Shown: positions 1 through 42,773 of the stretch, in pieces | How the letters are laid out: the number at the start of each line of letters is the position of its first letter | Position numbering within the stretch: position 1 is the first letter of the stretch | NCBI GenBank assembly: GCA_045546415.1 | Contig: JAZQCS010000092.1 | Location: forward strand, 280 to 64,279 | Direction of reading: 5' to 3' | Origin: Clostridia bacterium | Lineage (GTDB): Bacteria; Bacillota; Clostridia; RUG12999 | DNA: 64,000 nt | The notes under the pieces: generated by a model | What the model saw: the letters and a program-made list of their open reading frames with translations, nothing else | Told to the model about the DNA's origin: nothing | Databases searched by the model: none | Made by a program: the position numbers and the translations under genes

Positions 1-1543
1 CACCCATAGCAAGAAACTCTTCTGTTTCCTCCTCATCGTCTGACCAGAACACATTACATTTAATTCCGTGTTCGTGTGCTTTATCTATCATTTCCTGATT
101 AAAATAAGGTTTATATAACTGCACCTTTTCACATTTTAATTCAATTGCTCTGTCAACTATTTCCCACGGTCTGTCCGATAAATGTCCGACGCAAACAGCA
201 ATTTCTGGAGCACATTCTTTAAATTGCTTAATCTGGATGTCAGTTTCCAACATAAAATATACATATTTTTCACAATCATATTTTCTAACAAGTTCAATAA
301 TTTTTTTCATTATGTCATCAGGATATTCTTCAGTATAGGACAAAGGTTTCACATGCACATTCATAATAACATGTCCTGCAAATTTACGGAGAATATCTTC
401 AAATTTCAGAACTTTCATTCCTTTGAATTTTTCTCCGAATTTAATGCCAAAATCAAGCTGCTGAAGCTCTGCCAGGGTTTTATCGGTTATAAAGCCTTCT
501 CCGTTGCTCACCCTTTCAAGCGCATTGTCGTGGCAGGAAACAATTTCCCCATCCTTAGTGGGCCACAAATCAAGCTCAATTTCATCAGCACCCATTGCAA
601 CCGCCGCACCGTAGGCAGGCATACTGTTTTCAGGGGCTATTGTGCTGAATCCTCTGTGGGCGCACACTCTGGGGTACTTCATTGTTTTATCGTCATTTAC
701 AATGGCACTTCCTGCAAAGCGGTACTGCCAGGGTTTTCTGCCAAATTCAATATATTCATAATGTGCCGCATCGGGGTTTCCGAAGCCTGCCGGCTTTAAA
801 TATTTATCCATCGGGTCAAACTCTGCTGTTGCCATGCCGAACTTGCCCTTCATATTTTCAAGAACCTTACCGTAAGGAGAAACCACCATACTTGCACCGC
901 ATATTTCAGAAGCTTCATCAAAGCTGACAGAAGAACGGATTACATAGGCATTGGTATTATATGCCAGGAAACGGCACATAGTTTCAATAGCATCGTGGCT
1001 GTCACTTCTCTGCAAAGAACAGCCGATTATAATATCCACCTTTTCCCGTGCAATTTTGGCAAACGCCTCATAAAAATAAAAATCGTAGCAGGTTAAAAAG
1101 CCGTACCTGAGCCCGTCAATTTCAATTACATAAAGCTCGGAATATTCAAAAGTGTAATCCGAATCAAGCTCCAGGGTGTTCAGTTCAAGGGGCGGCAGAT
1201 GCTTTTTGAAATACTGTCCTGCAAGCTCACCCTTCCGGTTGTATACATAGGTTGTGTTTCTGTAGTTATTGTTAATTTCATAAAGTGCGTTAACAAACAC
1301 AACGGCATTACATCTTTTTGCGGTTTCAACACATTTATCAAGGAGAGTTTTTATGTATTTTTTGTGATAGAAAAGTGTTTCCTCCCTGTCAGCGGTTGCA
1401 CAGGGAACATCGCTGTATTCCGGCAACACTATAATATCAACAGAGCTGTCGCATTTTTCCAGCAGCTTTATTTTATATTCAAAAAGCTCATCCGAACGGG
1501 AAACATCCCTTGAATATGGCGGTTGAATTATACATGCTTTCAT
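1..1543 (-). CDS. Carbon-nitrogen hydrolase / glycerophosphodiester phosphodiesterase (GDPD) fusion protein; partial, with the C-terminus beyond window position 1
   Basis: My own minus-strand translation from ATG 1543 (RBS AAAGGA about 8 nt upstream) gives MKACIIQPPYSRD... The N-terminal ~260 aa look like a nitrilase/CN hydrolase. The later region carries GDPD hallmarks (HRGFSTIAPENS, EIELDLW, CHDN). It is absent from the ORF track because it has no stop inside the window. The overlapping + ORFs (182..799, 682..927, 1199..1513) are judged spurious. Confidence 0.75.
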   Translation of the reverse strand, partial: MKACIIQPPYSRDVSRSDELFEYKIKLLEKCDSSVDIIVLPEYSDVPCATADREETLFYHKKYIKTLLDKCVETAKRCNAVVFVNALYEINNNYRNTTYVYNRKGELAGQYFKKHLPPLELNTLELDSDYTFEYSELYVIEIDGLRYGFLTCYDFYFYEAFAKIAREKVDIIIGCSLQRSDSHDAIETMCRFLAYNTNAYVIRSSVSFDEASEICGASMVVSPYGKVLENMKGKFGMATAEFDPMDKYLKPAGFGNPDAAHYEYIEFGRKPWQYRFAGSAIVNDDKTMKYPRVCAHRGFSTIAPENSMPAYGAAVAMGADEIELDLWPTKDGEIVSCHDNALERVSNGEGFITDKTLAELQQLDFGIKFGEKFKGMKVLKFEDILRKFAGHVIMNVHVKPLSYTEEYPDDIMKKIIELVRKYDCEKYVYFMLETDIQIKQFKECAPEIAVCVGHLSDRPWEIVDRAIELKCEKVQLYKPYFNQEMIDKAHEHGIKCNVFWSDDEEETEEFLAMG

Positions 1544-1728
1544 TTTCGTTTTTCCTTTCTGTTTCCTTTACTCATCCTTCATATTATAATAATTATACAA
1601 TAAACAAGTTCAAATTACAAGATATTTTGCAAAAATGTCAGTTGTTTTTTTGTTAAATTTATGTTATACTTATATGGTTGCAAAAAAATCAGAAAACTTT
1701 ACATAAAATTTTTAAGGAGGCTTTTCCT

Positions 1729-3561
1729 GTGAAAATTGAAAATATCAGAAACATTGCAATTATTGCCCATGTCGACCACGGTAAAACCACTATGGTTGAC
1801 AAAATGCTCAAGCAAAGCGGTATTTTCCGCAGTAACGAGGTTGTTCAGGACCGTGTTATGGACTCCAACGACCTTGAACGGGAGCGTGGCATTACCATTC
1901 TTTCAAAAAACACATCCATTGTTTATAACGATGTTAAAATCAACATTGTAGATACCCCCGGACACGCAGATTTCGGCGGCGAGGTTGAGCGTGTTCTTGG
2001 CATGGTTGAAGGTGTTCTTCTTCTTGTGGACGCTTTTGAGGGTGCTATGCCCCAGACCCGTTTTGTGCTTAAAAAGGCTCTTGAGCGCGGTCTTAAGCCA
2101 ATTGTTGTTGTGAATAAAATCGACAAAAAGGATGCCCGTCCCGAGGAAGTAGTTGACGAGGTTTTTGACCTGTTCTTTGAGCTTGGTGCAAACGACGAAC
2201 AGCTTGATTTCCCGGTTATTTATGCTTCTTCCCGTGAAGGTATAGCCATGAAGGATTTAGATAATCCCCAGGACGATATGACCGACCTTTTTGATGCCAT
2301 TATCGATATGGTTCCCCCACCCGAATGCGACCCCACACAGCCTCTTCAGATGCTTGTTTCCAACATTGATTCCGACGAGTACATAGGCAGAATTGCTGTG
2401 GGTAAAATAAAGCGCGGATATGTTCAGGAGGGCGAAACTGTTGCCATCTGCAAAAAGGACGGCACAGTTGCAAAAGCAAAGGTAAACAAGCTGTTCATTT
2501 ATGACGGCTTAAAGCGTATAGATGCGCCCGAAGTGAAATGCGGTGAAATTGTCTGTATTTCCGGCCTTGGCGATGTAGAAATCGGTGAAACCGTGTGCAA
2601 CATAATGTGTCCCGATGCCCTTCCGGTTATCAATGTGGACGAGCCTACCATCTCAATGAATTTCCTTGTGAATAACAGCCCATTTGCAGGCAAAGAAGGG
2701 GAATTTGTAACCTCCCGTCACCTTCGTGCCCGTCTTTTCAAGGAGCTTGAAACCAACGTTGCGCTCCGTGTTGAGGAAACCGATTCCTCCGACTGCTTCA
2801 AGCTTTCGGGCAGAGGCGAGCTTCACCTTTCCATTCTTATTGAAACAATGCGCCGTGAAGGTTATGAATTCCAGGTTTCCAAGCCTCAGGTTATCCTAAA
2901 AGAAGAAGGCGGAAAAACCCTGGAGCCTTATGAAATTGTAATTGTTGATGTTCCTGAAGAATATGCCGGAACAGTTATTGAAAAGCTTGGCGGCAGAAAA
3001 GCAGAAATGCGCAATATGACCCCCATAAACAATGGTGCTTACAGCCGTATAGAATTCCGTATCCCCTCCCGCGGTCTTATCGGTTACAGAAGTGAATTTC
3101 TGACCGACACAAGAGGTAACGGTATAATGAACACCATTTTTGACGGCTATGATGAATTCTGCGGTGCACTTCCCGGCAGAAACCGCGGTTCCATGATTGC
3201 CTGGGAGGATGGCGAATCCATCACCTACGGCTTATACAATGCCGAAGGCAGAGGCGAGCTGTTCATCGGTGCAGGCGTTAAGGTTTACCAGGGTATGATT
3301 GTTGGCAGAAATGCAAAATCCGAGGACATTGTAATTAATGTGTGCAAAAAGAAGCACGCTACAAACACCCGTGCTTCCGGCTCGGACGATGCACTTCGTC
3401 TTACACCACCTGTTATTATGAGCCTGGAAAATTGCCTTGAATTTATTGCCGATGACGAGCTTGTTGAAATCACTCCCCAAAACATCCGTCTCCGCAAAAA
3501 AATCCTTGATACCGAGCTTCGTGCAAAAGCCGAGGCAAGGGAAAGAAAAGCAAACATGTAA
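1729..3561 (+). CDS. typA: Translational GTPase TypA/BipA
   Basis: [12 protein letters not shown] (G1), DTPGH (G3) and NKIDK (G4) motifs with ~610 aa length are typical of BipA. I place the start at GTG 1729, 8 nt after RBS AAGGAGG (1714-1720) and in frame with track ORF 1678..3561. Confidence 0.9.
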
Positions 3562-5895: not shown

Positions 5896-5987
5896 CTACC
5901 TGTTCCTTCTATGTATACCTTGACATACCTCTCAACCAATGATATAATAAAATCATTATCACATACTTTTACGAAAGGATGATACAA

Positions 5988-39059: not shown

Positions 39060-39350
39060 TTATCCCTCCAATCCGTTCACAAAAATGCTCTTCCGCACTT
39101 CATCATGCTTAACAGAGATTTCTTCATTGTTCTCTGTTTTTTGGTATCTTTCAAGACCGGTAAGCTTATAACAGTCAAGGTAATCCTGTATATGGAGCTT
39201 ACCTCTTACGCCCGCTCTGTCACCCACTCTTCGTTTGATATCATTCATTTTTATGCTTGCCTCACTGAGACTGCAGCTGAATAATGCGGCAAATTCATTA
39301 AGCGTAATAACTTCCTTAGAGAAAATCTTTTCTCTTTCTTCGTATGTCAT
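39060..39350 (-). CDS. Putative DNA-binding early protein (phage)
   Basis: 96 aa directly downstream of cro in the early operon. ITLNEFAALFSCSLSEASIKMNDIKRR is HTH-like. Confidence 0.45.
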   Translation of the reverse strand: MTYEEREKIFSKEVITLNEFAALFSCSLSEASIKMNDIKRRVGDRAGVRGKLHIQDYLDCYKLTGLERYQKTENNEEISVKHDEVRKSIFVNGLEG

Positions 39351-39354
39351 TTTT

Positions 39355-39549
39355 TCACCTCCCGTTTACTGCAAGCAAATCATCAATACTGCAGTCAAGC
39401 TTTTTAGCTACAACCGCCCATCGTGCTCCGGGCATATCTGCAACACCCGCTTCAGCTCTGCAAAGAACAGATTCGGATATTGCTGTTTTTTTTGACAACT
39501 CCTTAATTGTCAGACCTGCTCTTTCACGAAAACATTTTAAATTGTTCAT
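39355..39549 (-). CDS. Cro-like XRE-family HTH regulator
   Basis: The HTH is LTIKELSKKTAISESVLCRAEAG. I place the start at ATG 39549 (RBS AAGGAG), in frame with track ORF 39355..39603. It is the first gene of the leftward early operon, divergent from cI. Confidence 0.75.
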   Translation of the reverse strand: MNNLKCFRERAGLTIKELSKKTAISESVLCRAEAGVADMPGARWAVVAKKLDCSIDDLLAVNGR

Positions 39550-39596
39550 AATATCACTCCTTTCGATTGTCTTACGCAATTTTTCGGGGTGAGATA

Positions 39597-39625
39597 TTGA
39601 CAACCTTGGTTTTTTTTGTTATAAT
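39597..39625 (+). promoter_or_regulatory. Consensus rightward promoter toward cI (TTGACA-17-TGtTATAAT)
   Basis: TTGACA 39597-39602, 17 nt spacer, TATAAT 39620-39625 with an extended TG. It lies in the cro 5' UTR region and points at the cro promoter. Confidence 0.65.
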
Positions 39626-39749
39626 TAATTTGCTACAACAAATTACAACAAAAATCTCGGTTGTCATATCTGCTCCGGGATAGCTTTTCAGTAATCTCTT
39701 TCTTTTTTTAGGGGATTACTCTAAGTATTAAATTGCTAACCACAATTTA

Positions 39750-39778
39750 ATTATAACTTAGCAAAACTTAAATGTCAA
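39750..39778 (-). promoter_or_regulatory. Consensus leftward early promoter toward cro (TTGACA-17-TATAAT on minus) with an overlapping operator-like inverted repeat
   Basis: The minus-strand -35 is 39778..39773 and the -10 is 39755..39750. The inverted repeat TTGCTAA (39734-39740) / TTAGCAA (39759-39765) brackets the -10. Confidence 0.65.
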
Positions 39779-39785
39779 CATTTTT

Positions 39786-39860
39786 TACTAAGTTTTATTA
39801 AGTTTGTGAAATGTGAACAAAAACCTTCTGTAAGTTTTGTTAAGTTTTGTGAGGTGAATA
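39786..39860. repeat. Direct repeats TAAGTTTT(A/G)TTAAGTTT(T)GTGA(A/G)(A/G)TGAA (2 x ~30 bp), operator- or UP-like, between the early promoter and the cI start
   Basis: 39790-39819 and 39831-39859 are near-identical, each with an internal TAAGTTT tandem. Confidence 0.5.
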
Positions 39861-39862
39861 AA

Positions 39863-40495
39863 ATGGTAAAAAAAATCTTTGAGGAGCTCTGCAAACAAAA
39901 AGGGGTTTCTCCCACGAGTGTGTGTTCAAAGATAGGAATATCATCGGCAGCATACTCGCAATGGACGGACAAAACCGTCCCAAGAAATTCAACATTAAAA
40001 AGGATGGCTGACTACTTCGGTGTAACCACCGATGCGTTGCTTGGCTACATCGACATCGACTCTGTGCCAAACCTGCAGTCCGTTGATGAGCTTGTTGTTT
40101 TCGAGGAAATCGGAGTAATTAGTGCAGGGTATGACGGTCAGGCAATCGAAGAACACACAGGCAAAAAAATAGACCTCCCGGCAAGTATGCTGAAAGGTCT
40201 CGGAAAAGATAATTTTTTTGTTTTGCGTGTCAGAGGAAACTCAATGTATCCAAAGCTCATTGACGGGGACAGCATTCTCTGTCAGAGATGTTCTTCCGTT
40301 GACAGCGGAGATACAGCTGTTGTTCTCTACGATGGTAATGAGGCTACCGTCAAACAAGTACGATATAAACAGGGTGAGGATTGGCTTGAACTTATCCCGG
40401 TAAATCCTGAGTACGAAACCAAGCGAATCGAAGGGTTTGACCTTGAACAATGTCGCGTACTCGGTAAAGTGGTTAAATTAATAAGAGATTTTTAA
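39863..40495 (+). CDS. CI-like repressor (XRE HTH plus S24 LexA-type autopeptidase)
   Basis: HTH is SKIGISSAAYSQWTDK. The S24 domain carries Ser in GNSMYP and a Lys downstream. I place the start at ATG 39863 (RBS GAGGTG), in frame with track ORF 39806. Confidence 0.85.
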   Translation: MVKKIFEELCKQKGVSPTSVCSKIGISSAAYSQWTDKTVPRNSTLKRMADYFGVTTDALLGYIDIDSVPNLQSVDELVVFEEIGVISAGYDGQAIEEHTGKKIDLPASMLKGLGKDNFFVLRVRGNSMYPKLIDGDSILCQRCSSVDSGDTAVVLYDGNEATVKQVRYKQGEDWLELIPVNPEYETKRIEGFDLEQCRVLGKVVKLIRDF

Positions 40496-41285: not shown

Positions 41286-42416
41286 ATGAAAGAATTTTAT
41301 ATTTCCTCCACAAAATACAATATTCAAGAAAGAAAAACCAAAAAGCATGGTACGGTGTACGATGTTGTTTTTCGCATTGTAACTTTAGATGGCACAGAAA
41401 AGCAAAAGAAGCTTTCCGGATATACAACTAAAACCCTTGCCAAACAAGCTTATACGGAGTTTGTTACAGAGCATTGCGAGCTTGTTAAAAACAATCCTAT
41501 AAAAAAGAAAAACACAGATAAAGAAACCCCTACTGTTGGTGAGCTTATAAGGCAATATCTTGCAACGCTATCCAACCAGAATAAGGAAAGCTCAATTTAC
41601 GATAAACAAAACATATATAGGTTATTTGTTCTGCCGCACTATGATGATACGAAGATAACCGCACTTACCAAAGAGGAACTTTATTTGTGGCAAGACAAAT
41701 TATGGGCAACTAAGAACCCACGAACGAATGATTTCTATTCATATAAGTACCTATACAAAGTCCGAACTCATTTCCAGGCTTTCCTTGCCTGGGTGGAAAG
41801 CCGTTATGGATTTAAAAATTTCTTTCCCGAGGTTGCAAAACCCAAGCGCAGAACCGCAAAAACAAAAATGGAATTTTGGAAAAGAGAGGATTTTGAAAAA
41901 TTTATTTCTGTAATTGATGACCCCATGTATCACTGCCTATTTACTATGATGTTTTTTACAGGTAGACGAAAAGGTGAGATTTTCGCTCTTTCCCCCGATG
42001 ATGTTCAGGAGAGCACCATATCCTTCACTAAATCCTTAACAAGAAAAACACTCGATGGCAGCGCTTATAAAATCACCACAACAAAAACGGATAAGAATCA
42101 GGTAGTCCCGATTTGTGAAACACTCATAAAGGAACTACACAATTATTCACCCCAAACACCCTTTTTCTTCGGTGGAGAAAGACCACTTGCCGAAAAAACT
42201 GTTACTCGTGTTTTTGACAGAGGCTGCGAGCTCGCCGGTGTAAAAAGAATACGCATACATGATTTAAGACACTCCTTTGTATCTATGCTTATTCACCTTG
42301 GAGCCAACCTGATGGTTGTTGCTGACCTTATAGGCGATACCGTTGAGCAGGTGACAAAAACATACGGTCATTTATATGAGTCAGACAAGCTTGATATTAT
42401 ATCTAAAATAAAGTGA
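41286..42416 (+). CDS. int: Tyrosine-type site-specific integrase
   Basis: The C-terminal catalytic region carries HDLRHSF...LIGDTVEQVTKTYGHL (R-H-R-Y pattern) and an N-terminal SAM-like/AP2-like domain. RBS AGGAGA precedes the start. Confidence 0.9.
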   Translation: MKEFYISSTKYNIQERKTKKHGTVYDVVFRIVTLDGTEKQKKLSGYTTKTLAKQAYTEFVTEHCELVKNNPIKKKNTDKETPTVGELIRQYLATLSNQNKESSIYDKQNIYRLFVLPHYDDTKITALTKEELYLWQDKLWATKNPRTNDFYSYKYLYKVRTHFQAFLAWVESRYGFKNFFPEVAKPKRRTAKTKMEFWKREDFEKFISVIDDPMYHCLFTMMFFTGRRKGEIFALSPDDVQESTISFTKSLTRKTLDGSAYKITTTKTDKNQVVPICETLIKELHNYSPQTPFFFGGERPLAEKTVTRVFDRGCELAGVKRIRIHDLRHSFVSMLIHLGANLMVVADLIGDTVEQVTKTYGHLYESDKLDIISKIK

Positions 42417-42505: not shown

Positions 42506-42593
42506 TCTCTCTCTCTCCGCCAAGCAAAAAGCATCACCTTTCGGTGGTGCTTTTTGTCTTACAGGAGACGAGAGAGTGAGAACTCTCTGCAAG
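42506..42593. repeat. att-like direct repeat copy 1 (putative attR): the 13-nt tRNA-Ser core plus ~75 bp containing a terminator-like hairpin
   Basis: TCTCTCTCTCTCC-GCCAAGCAAAAAGCATCACCtttcGGTGGTGCTTTTTGTCTT-ACAGGAGACGAGAGAGTGAGAACTCTCTGCAAG. The core is identical to 8135-8147. Confidence 0.55.
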
Positions 42594-42684: not shown

Positions 42685-42773
42685 TCTCCTCTCTCTCCGC
42701 CAAGCAAAAAGCATCACCTATTGGTGGTGCTTTTTGTCTTGCAGGAGACGAGAGAGTGAGAACTCTCTGCAAG
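42685..42773. repeat. att-like direct repeat copy 2 (~95% identical to copy 1), abutting the remnant of the giant gene
   Basis: Copy 2 has the same 87-bp unit with 3-4 substitutions and one extra C in the core. Homology to the internal region of the giant gene starts at its right edge. Confidence 0.55.

Follow-up and report, generated by a model that had tools for sequence, protein, structure and literature searches.

Predicted face-to-face promoters in the cI/cro immunity switch of a Clostridia prophage

Which promoter serves which gene in an immunity region whose two best promoters point at each other? The question is raised by a locus in the window, the whole stretch of 64,000 nucleotides analysed here. 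The locus belongs to an integrated temperate phage (prophage) and forms its cI/cro immunity region, at the end that carries the integrase; the features of the region are collected in Table 1. The cro and cI genes are divergent and separated by a 313-bp gap. We placed the cro start at the ATG at 39549, in agreement with the 64-aa cluster P0121. cro is the first gene of the leftward early operon and is followed by replication genes; the content of this operon includes a LysM protein, a Lin1244/Phg_2220 replication-type protein and an SSB, among others. On the other side, cI carries a ribosome-binding site (GAGGTG) 7 nt 5′ of its ATG and heads an operon cI, orf218, int, in which a 218-aa hydrophobic ORF precedes a tyrosine integrase (41286–42416). 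The CI protein matched Pfam Peptidase_S24 (4e-23) and HTH_3 as well as PHROG 4, transcriptional repressor. Ala88-Gly89 of the cleavage site and the catalytic residues Ser127 and Lys164 were found to be invariant in 34 homologues.

Just 3′ of the integrase gene, the window carries two 85-nt direct repeats (42509–42593 and 42689–42773) which are 96% identical and 180 bp apart, each holding a GC-rich hairpin (CAAAAAGCATCACC...GGTGGTGCTTTTTG). These repeats gave no tRNA and no Rfam match; a connection with the attachment site is possible, as is a repeated terminator element.

Table 1. Positions in the window of the genes, predicted promoters and candidate sites of the immunity region
Feature	Position	Strand	Description
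cro-like gene, 64-aa XRE-family HTH	39355..39549	-	ORF; Pfam HTH_26/HTH_31/HTH_3; PHROG transcriptional repressor
Site A (GATTGTCTTACGCAATT; TTG-N7-CAATT), tentative Cro-module operator	39565..39581		upstream of P(+) -35; arms conserved in cro modules A, B and C
Long imperfect palindrome	39592..39671	-	centred on predicted P(+) start; left arm is P(+) itself; 25-nt arms, 80% complementary
P(+), predicted lysogenic (cI) promoter	39597..39625	+	TTGACA 39597-39602, 17 nt, TG 39617-39618, TATAAT 39620-39625
Tandem TACAACAAA repeats, at 39634 and 39644	39634..39652	+	right arm of the palindrome; cro module A only
Site C, palindrome AAATTG-N7-CAATTT, candidate cro-module operator	39730..39748		over P(-) start; arms invariant in all cro modules
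P(-), predicted lytic (cro/early) promoter	39750..39778	-	TTGACA 39778..39773, 17 nt, TATAAT 39755..39750
O1, candidate CI operator (TAAGTTTTGCTAAGTT on minus strand)	39755..39770	-	inverted exact 16-mer, fills P(-) spacer
O2, candidate CI operator (TAAGTTTTATTAAGTT)	39789..39804	+	exact 16-mer; conserved in L009 (same CI HTH)
O3, candidate CI operator (TAAGTTTTGTTAAGTT)	39831..39846	+	exact 16-mer; same argument as O2
cI-like repressor, 210 aa, N-terminal HTH and C-terminal S24 (LexA/lambda CI-type) self-cleavage domain	39863..40495	+	Pfam, PHROG

The two perfect-consensus promoters that the initial annotation had placed in the gap were both recovered at the same coordinates, each with a consensus score of 12/12, P(+) having in addition an extended −10 (TGtTATAAT). 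Both continue in the same way past the hexamer, as TATAAT-TAAWTTG. On the two strands of the 64-kb window taken together, TTGACA-N17-TATAAT was matched at six sites, two of which fall within this 182-bp stretch, whereas 100 shuffles of the window that preserved dinucleotides contained 0.00 on average. The other four perfect sites are located at 5920–5948 (+), 58832–58860 (−), 62236–62264 (+) and 63601–63629 (+). AT-rich intergenic DNA could carry promoter-like sequences by chance, and AT-rich spacers do yield many partial matches. However, two 12/12 promoters within 182 bp, where 0.00 are expected in 64 kb, and their conservation at about 70% identity leave this explanation hardly credible; the shuffle counts together with the conservation in relatives described below effectively refute it.

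Taking as start site the purine 7 nt past each −10, transcription is predicted to begin at G39632 on the plus strand and at G39743 on the minus strand. The predicted transcripts would therefore overlap over about 112 nt, with leaders of 231 nt for cI and 194 nt for cro. Each promoter adjoins the opposite gene: 48 nt separate P(+) from the ATG of cro, and 85 nt separate P(−) from that of cI.

No terminator was found in the region 39300–40000, and no expressible ORF between P(+) and cI. A 38-aa plus-strand ORF was rejected since it begins upstream of the P(+) start site, as was a 31-aa ORF in the cro leader, which has only 7 codons in the related contig L007 and no ribosome-binding site in L009 and L007. 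We then consider other promoters: a permissive scan (at least 8/12, spacers of 15–19 nt) revealed none that is conserved in position near cI or cro across the related loci, so that P(+) and P(−) are the only credible promoters for the two genes. The right arm of the palindrome also carries a promoter in mirror image (ATGACA-16-TAATTT), which was discarded, since it scores 8/12 and its −10 is not conserved. The convergent reading of the initial annotation, with cI apparently transcribed from the distal plus-strand promoter and cro from the distal minus-strand promoter, is thus supported: the arrangement is kept in relatives, with no conserved alternative and no terminator. Between the two start sites, the variable central segment was also observed to contain a hairpin (AGTAATCTCT...AGGGGATTACT) at 39690–39720. 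Only one type of cro module (A, see below) carries it, and since neither strand shows a U-tract, it does not qualify as an intrinsic terminator.

The phage is rare. A blastn search of the switch against 50,697 phage records gave no match, tblastn with Cro gave a sole match (42%, Marinitoga viruses) and a search of genome contigs with CI gave distant matches only. Exact-pattern scans with two conserved blocks returned nothing from the IMG/VR and JGI metagenome collections; all close relatives therefore came from ENA/NCBI contigs reached via protein look-ups. These are nine contigs, L005–L012 and L093, all metagenomic.

Comparison of the window with these contigs resolved the region into modules. 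Three types of cro module, about 70% identical in nucleotide sequence to each other across both cro and the left-hand portion of the gap, were distinguished: module A (window, L005/6, L008 and L011/12), module B (L009/10) and module C (L007 and L093). The cI modules were defined by the type of CI HTH: alpha (window and L009/10), beta (L005/6 and L093) and gamma (L008 and L007). The three cro modules and three cI modules were seen in six combinations, three of which carry a near-identical cro module, the related contigs being few overall. The break of similarity between the two modules is located at 39755/39756, directly after the P(−) −10, and at the equivalent position in L005, L007, L008, L009 and L093, which makes the lytic promoter a chimera of both.

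Despite these exchanges, the promoters were maintained. P(−) scores 12/12 in all relatives. P(+) scores 12/12 with the TG in L005/6, L008, L007 and L093, and 11/12 with the TG in L009/10 (module B), where the −10 reads TATTAT. The 17-bp spacers of both promoters are kept in every module combination. P(+) stays exactly 48 nt away from the cro ATG whichever of the three cro modules is present, and P(−) lies 84–88 nt from the cI start in the relatives, with predicted leader overlaps of 75–114 nt. In L008, the gamma-type cI (2905–3546) contains an in-frame TGA past codon 14, and its called product (181 aa) is devoid of the HTH; this could reflect either a decaying prophage or an assembly error.

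The initial annotation had proposed the TAAGTTTT repeats as operators. We observed that their 16-bp core, TAAGTTTTnnTAAGTT, occurs in exactly three copies at the switch and nowhere else in the 64-kb window at up to two mismatches. One of them, which the initial annotation had missed, is inside the spacer of the lytic promoter (O1), and the other two (O2 and O3) are upstream of the −35 of P(−). These two give way to type-specific repeats where the cI module is beta or gamma: loci with the beta HTH (L005 and L093) carry TCCCTA-N4-TAGGGA and those with the gamma HTH (L008 and L007) AACTCTC-N5-GAGAGTT, in each case at the same three positions. The P(−) spacer sequence correlates perfectly with the CI HTH type, each type being found on two different cro backgrounds. 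Since the spacer and site sequences follow the CI HTH type and not the cro module, we assigned O1–O3 to CI, in what amounts to a natural swap of specificity. The proposal of the initial annotation is thereby upheld for the 16-bp core, present in three exact copies which co-vary with the CI HTH type, and the comparison supports O1–O3 as a set of candidate CI operators, the first within the P(−) spacer and the others upstream of the −35. Moreover, because one and the same cro/P(+) module serves three CI specificities, no CI operator is expected at P(+) and Cro would act independently of the CI operators.

Where could Cro bind? The recognition-helix region of Cro, ISESV(L/I)CR, is invariant across the three types of cro module, and its sites are therefore expected in blocks conserved in modules A, B and C. 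Site C, the sole exact AATTG-N7-CAATT in the window, is tentatively the best candidate for an operator of the cro module, at which Cro would bind. Weaker relatives of it are located at 39565–39581 (site A, which is complementary to site C) and just past the P(+) −10. The frequency of AATTG-N7-CAATT in the window is no higher than chance, and site A is not significant alone.

Two other repeats listed in the initial annotation as operators did not stand. The ACAACAAAT tandem is confined to cro module A, although the recognition helix of Cro is conserved in B and C as well. The inverted repeat TTGCTAA-N18-TTAGCAA is indeed present (39733–39739 and 39758–39764), with its left arm in the conserved cro module and its right arm part of the cI-module operator O1; it is absent from loci with other cI modules and represents a chance juxtaposition across the module junction.

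We consider it probable that this locus is an immunity switch in which two near-perfect sigma-A promoters lie face-to-face, each beside the regulator that controls it and not beside the gene that it expresses; the promoters, and from their positions the overlap of the leaders, are predicted here by consensus and conservation. In a lysogen, CI bound at O1–O3 would shut P(−). Because no CI operator is expected at P(+), CI would raise its own synthesis only indirectly, by relieving the interference from P(−) polymerases, as 186 CI does for pL; a repressor that boosts its own promoter through such relief of interference has precedent (PMC5423467). Conversely, CI would lower its own synthesis only as a roadblock within its 231-nt leader, P(+) being presumably constitutive by its consensus sequence. 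Following RecA-stimulated (SOS) self-cleavage of CI, P(−) would fire through P(+), and converging polymerases, possibly with pairing of the leaders and RNase III attack, would depress cI expression; overlapping 5′ UTRs and their consequences, among them the formation of RNase III substrates, have been described (PMC12288877). Cro at the cro-module sites (AAATTG-N7-CAATTT at the P(−) start and weaker copies at P(+)) would lock in or tune the lytic state. With start sites about 112 bp apart, which leaves no steric competition, and both promoters maximal, neither the direction nor the size of the interference can be predicted. Against this reading, P(+) transcripts might be blocked too strongly for a maintenance promoter when CI occupies the three sites within its own leader.

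A weak, CI-activated promoter among O2 and O3 could instead provide cI expression in the lysogen, P(+) being used for establishment or as an auxiliary, like lambda PRE. O2 and O3 are placed where such a promoter would be expected, their TAAGTT half-sites are compatible with a −10 core of TAnnnT, and a back-to-back pair whose cI-proximal promoter is the weaker one (mean 9.1/12) is found in most relatives within the repressor superfamily. Promoters of the lambda PRM type, which are activation-dependent, are weak consensus matches, so that one near cI could have escaped our scan. However, no plus-strand candidate of at least 8/12 within 39779–39862 is conserved in position across the loci, and the only recurrent match in this interval has a −10 overlapping the start codon. 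The conserved ribosome-binding site also speaks against a leaderless PRM-type mRNA, and the gap, roughly double the usual size, has the length that a face-to-face arrangement requires. We regard lambda-like maintenance as unlikely on these grounds.

At the RNA level, the long palindrome, with its centre at the P(+) start, is confined to the cro leader, where it is predicted to fold into a hairpin of about 80 nt (−29.9 kcal/mol, z = −6.7). Some of its G-U pairs work only on the minus strand. The hairpin is kept in cro modules B and C, with 4/28 pairs changed on both sides; these compensatory changes, in three independent sequences, are suggestive but not proof. Sub-threshold Rfam matches to miRNA precursors were rejected, as they reflect only the long hairpin shape. 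The hairpin could possibly be an RNase III site, a pause site for P(+) transcription or the presenter of a region for antisense pairing.

This structure also bears on another explanation, in which P(+) would mainly produce a cis-antisense RNA against the cro leader (countertranscript control, cf. pCF10 prgQ/prgX and P22 sar), its transcripts being mostly stopped by CI at O1–O3 or by collisions and control taking place at the RNA level. The leaders are perfectly complementary over about 112 nt, the conserved hairpin of the cro leader has its midpoint at the P(+) start, P(+) transcription has to pass the CI sites and overlapping UTRs are known RNase III substrates (PMC12288877). On the other hand, with no intrinsic terminator 3′ of P(+), read-through into cI is the default, and no other cI promoter was detectable. 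We judge such a role quite unlikely to be the main one; it is nevertheless compatible with the face-to-face switch and does not exclude it.

More tentatively, we envisage a design in two cassettes, which is possible but which we would not press. cI would be linked with the P(−) spacer, its −35 and the operators, and cro with P(+) and its flanking sites, with the crossover at the P(−) −10. Each regulator gene being linked to the promoter that it silences, modules would reassort independently among phages and leave the switch intact. CI would then autoregulate without an operator at its own promoter, positively by interference relief and negatively by roadblocking, and the 80-nt hairpin would be functional in interference or antisense pairing, for example as a pause or RNase III site.

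Free reassortment of cro and cI modules with a junction at the P(−) −10, a leader overlap that varies from 75 to 114 nt and a central segment that is not conserved would also fit a layout devoid of any regulatory consequence of its own. It would then be a by-product of cassette evolution, the regulator travelling with the promoter and operator that it represses, and interference would be negligible. Yet a perfect promoter transcribed across another one and complementary leaders are both expected to interfere (PMC5423467). Furthermore, an unrelated clade shares the layout and the promoter-to-gene distances are strictly conserved, and this explanation thus appears very unlikely.

To place the face-to-face switch among its relatives, we surveyed 80 IMG/VR loci encoding relatives of the repressor (76 evaluable) and scored the best promoter per strand between cI and the divergent upstream ORF. 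The arrangement was back-to-back in 70 of the 76 S24-CI loci, the medians being 101 bp for the distance between start sites and 158 bp for the gap. In these loci, the lytic promoter was stronger than the cI-proximal one (mean 10.2/12 versus 9.1/12). The automatic score called the remaining 6/76 face-to-face, and one convincing clade was left on inspection (L036, L043 and L049 of IMG/VR), with overlaps of 72–74 nt and with Cro and CI N-termini unrelated to those of the window. L038, L016 and L024 were rejected: L038 has a standard cI-proximal TTGATT-17-TATAAT, and otherwise only weak matches were seen. The existence of this second, unrelated clade makes the face-to-face layout a recurrent minority design among S24-CI prophages. 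In L036, L043 and L049, the spacers of both promoters hold GCTGAA at an identical position, and further copies surround the promoters, which suggests that one regulator controls the two.

In lambdoid phages, promoters are back-to-back and operators are shared. The present locus resembles lambda CI/Cro and most S24-CI prophages in its parts, i.e. a self-cleaving HTH and S24 repressor, a small HTH Cro and divergent genes; as in lambda, there are three candidate repressor operators, and the cI-int operon is directed away from the early genes. It differs in that its promoters are convergent, its operators would not be shared between CI and Cro (as judged from module reassortment) and no CI operator is expected at the cI promoter. 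The gap is also longer, 313 bp compared with the median of 158 bp in the 70 back-to-back relatives. A closer parallel within lambda is PR/PRE, where the lysogenic promoter likewise converges on a strong lytic promoter and repression of the latter relieves interference (PMC5423467). However, PRE is located downstream of cro, is CII-dependent and acts in establishment only, whereas P(+) is upstream of cro with a predicted constitutive consensus, and we identified no CII-like gene here.

The initial annotation had compared the locus with the switches of P2 and 186. This analogy holds for the geometry, convergent and not back-to-back as in lambda, and for the placement of operators, but not for homology, since by Pfam CI is of the S24 type and Cro of the XRE type. 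As with 186 pR/pL and P2 Pe/Pc, the predicted lytic and lysogenic promoters lie face-to-face between divergent regulator genes. In P2-like phages, the operators of the immunity repressor are found over the lytic promoter and the lytic-side regulator acts at different sites (PMC7498355); the candidate CI operators are similarly placed over P(−) and apart from the lytic-side sites, as deduced from the module swaps. The regulators themselves are different. Our repressor is a lambda/LexA-type HTH and S24 protein, unlike the 186 CI wheel or P2 C, neither of which is RecA-cleavable, and the first lytic gene encodes an XRE Cro (HTH_26/HTH_31/HTH_3 only) instead of an excisionase-regulator of the Apl/Cox type. 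Proteins of the latter type bind direct repeats 10–11 bp apart that lie between the promoters, whereas the sole 10-bp tandem here (TACAACAAA twice) does not exist in modules B and C. Start sites are separated by 40–60 bp in P2-like phages (PMC7498355) and by 75–114 bp here, where both promoters are of perfect consensus. In 186, pR inhibits pL by interference and the effect is not reciprocal (PMC7498355). The host is also different, being a Clostridia-type Firmicute here, whereas 186 and P2 are coliphages. Judged from its sequence, the switch would work like that of 186/P2, but it falls outside that family.

Convergent promoters have been considered before in related hosts. In the Clostridium clostridioforme LM41 prophages phi5 and phi12, such promoters were predicted by software between divergent regulators and the 186 analogy was drawn (PMC11318856), so the idea is not new for Clostridia. 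Those prophages have modules of the ImmR/ImmA type, and the predictions were made by program on single genomes, without comparative or operator evidence. What is added here is comparative support, the assignment of operators, the reassortment of modules and an estimate of the frequency of the layout. A further parallel is provided by excludons, divergent genes with long overlapping 5′ UTRs whose expression is expected to be mutually exclusive through interference and RNase III cleavage (PMC12288877). Excludons are defined from transcriptomes; at the present locus, the neighbouring genes are divergent and an overlap of their 5′ UTRs is predicted from promoter positions. The locus differs in being a bistable phage switch with dedicated repressors.

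That lambda-type parts (an SOS-cleavable CI and an XRE Cro) are combined with a 186/P2 geometry in gut Clostridia prophages, and again in a second clade that is unrelated, suggests that interference-based switches have arisen by convergent evolution. The exchanges of modules seen among these phages constitute a ready-made specificity-swap experiment, which indicates where the operators lie and suggests that the layout makes immunity cassettes exchangeable. If confirmed, the locus would offer a compact and re-targetable bistable switch for synthetic biology in Firmicutes, and a test case for repressor autoregulation by interference relief and roadblocking.

A different use of CI domains was observed in L093 (NCBI GCA_052836585.1, JAZMPT010000004.1), where a 266-aa gene (1073–1873, minus strand) lies between the switch and a normal beta-type HTH and S24 cI. 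Its product carries three tandem HTH domains and no S24 domain. Domain 2 matches the gamma CI type and domain 3 the alpha type of the window, and the junctions between the domains fall at the conserved linker ADYFGVTTDALLGY. The protein resembles a non-cleavable repressor of multiple specificities, possibly conferring superimmunity against other immunity types, or else a product of recombination.
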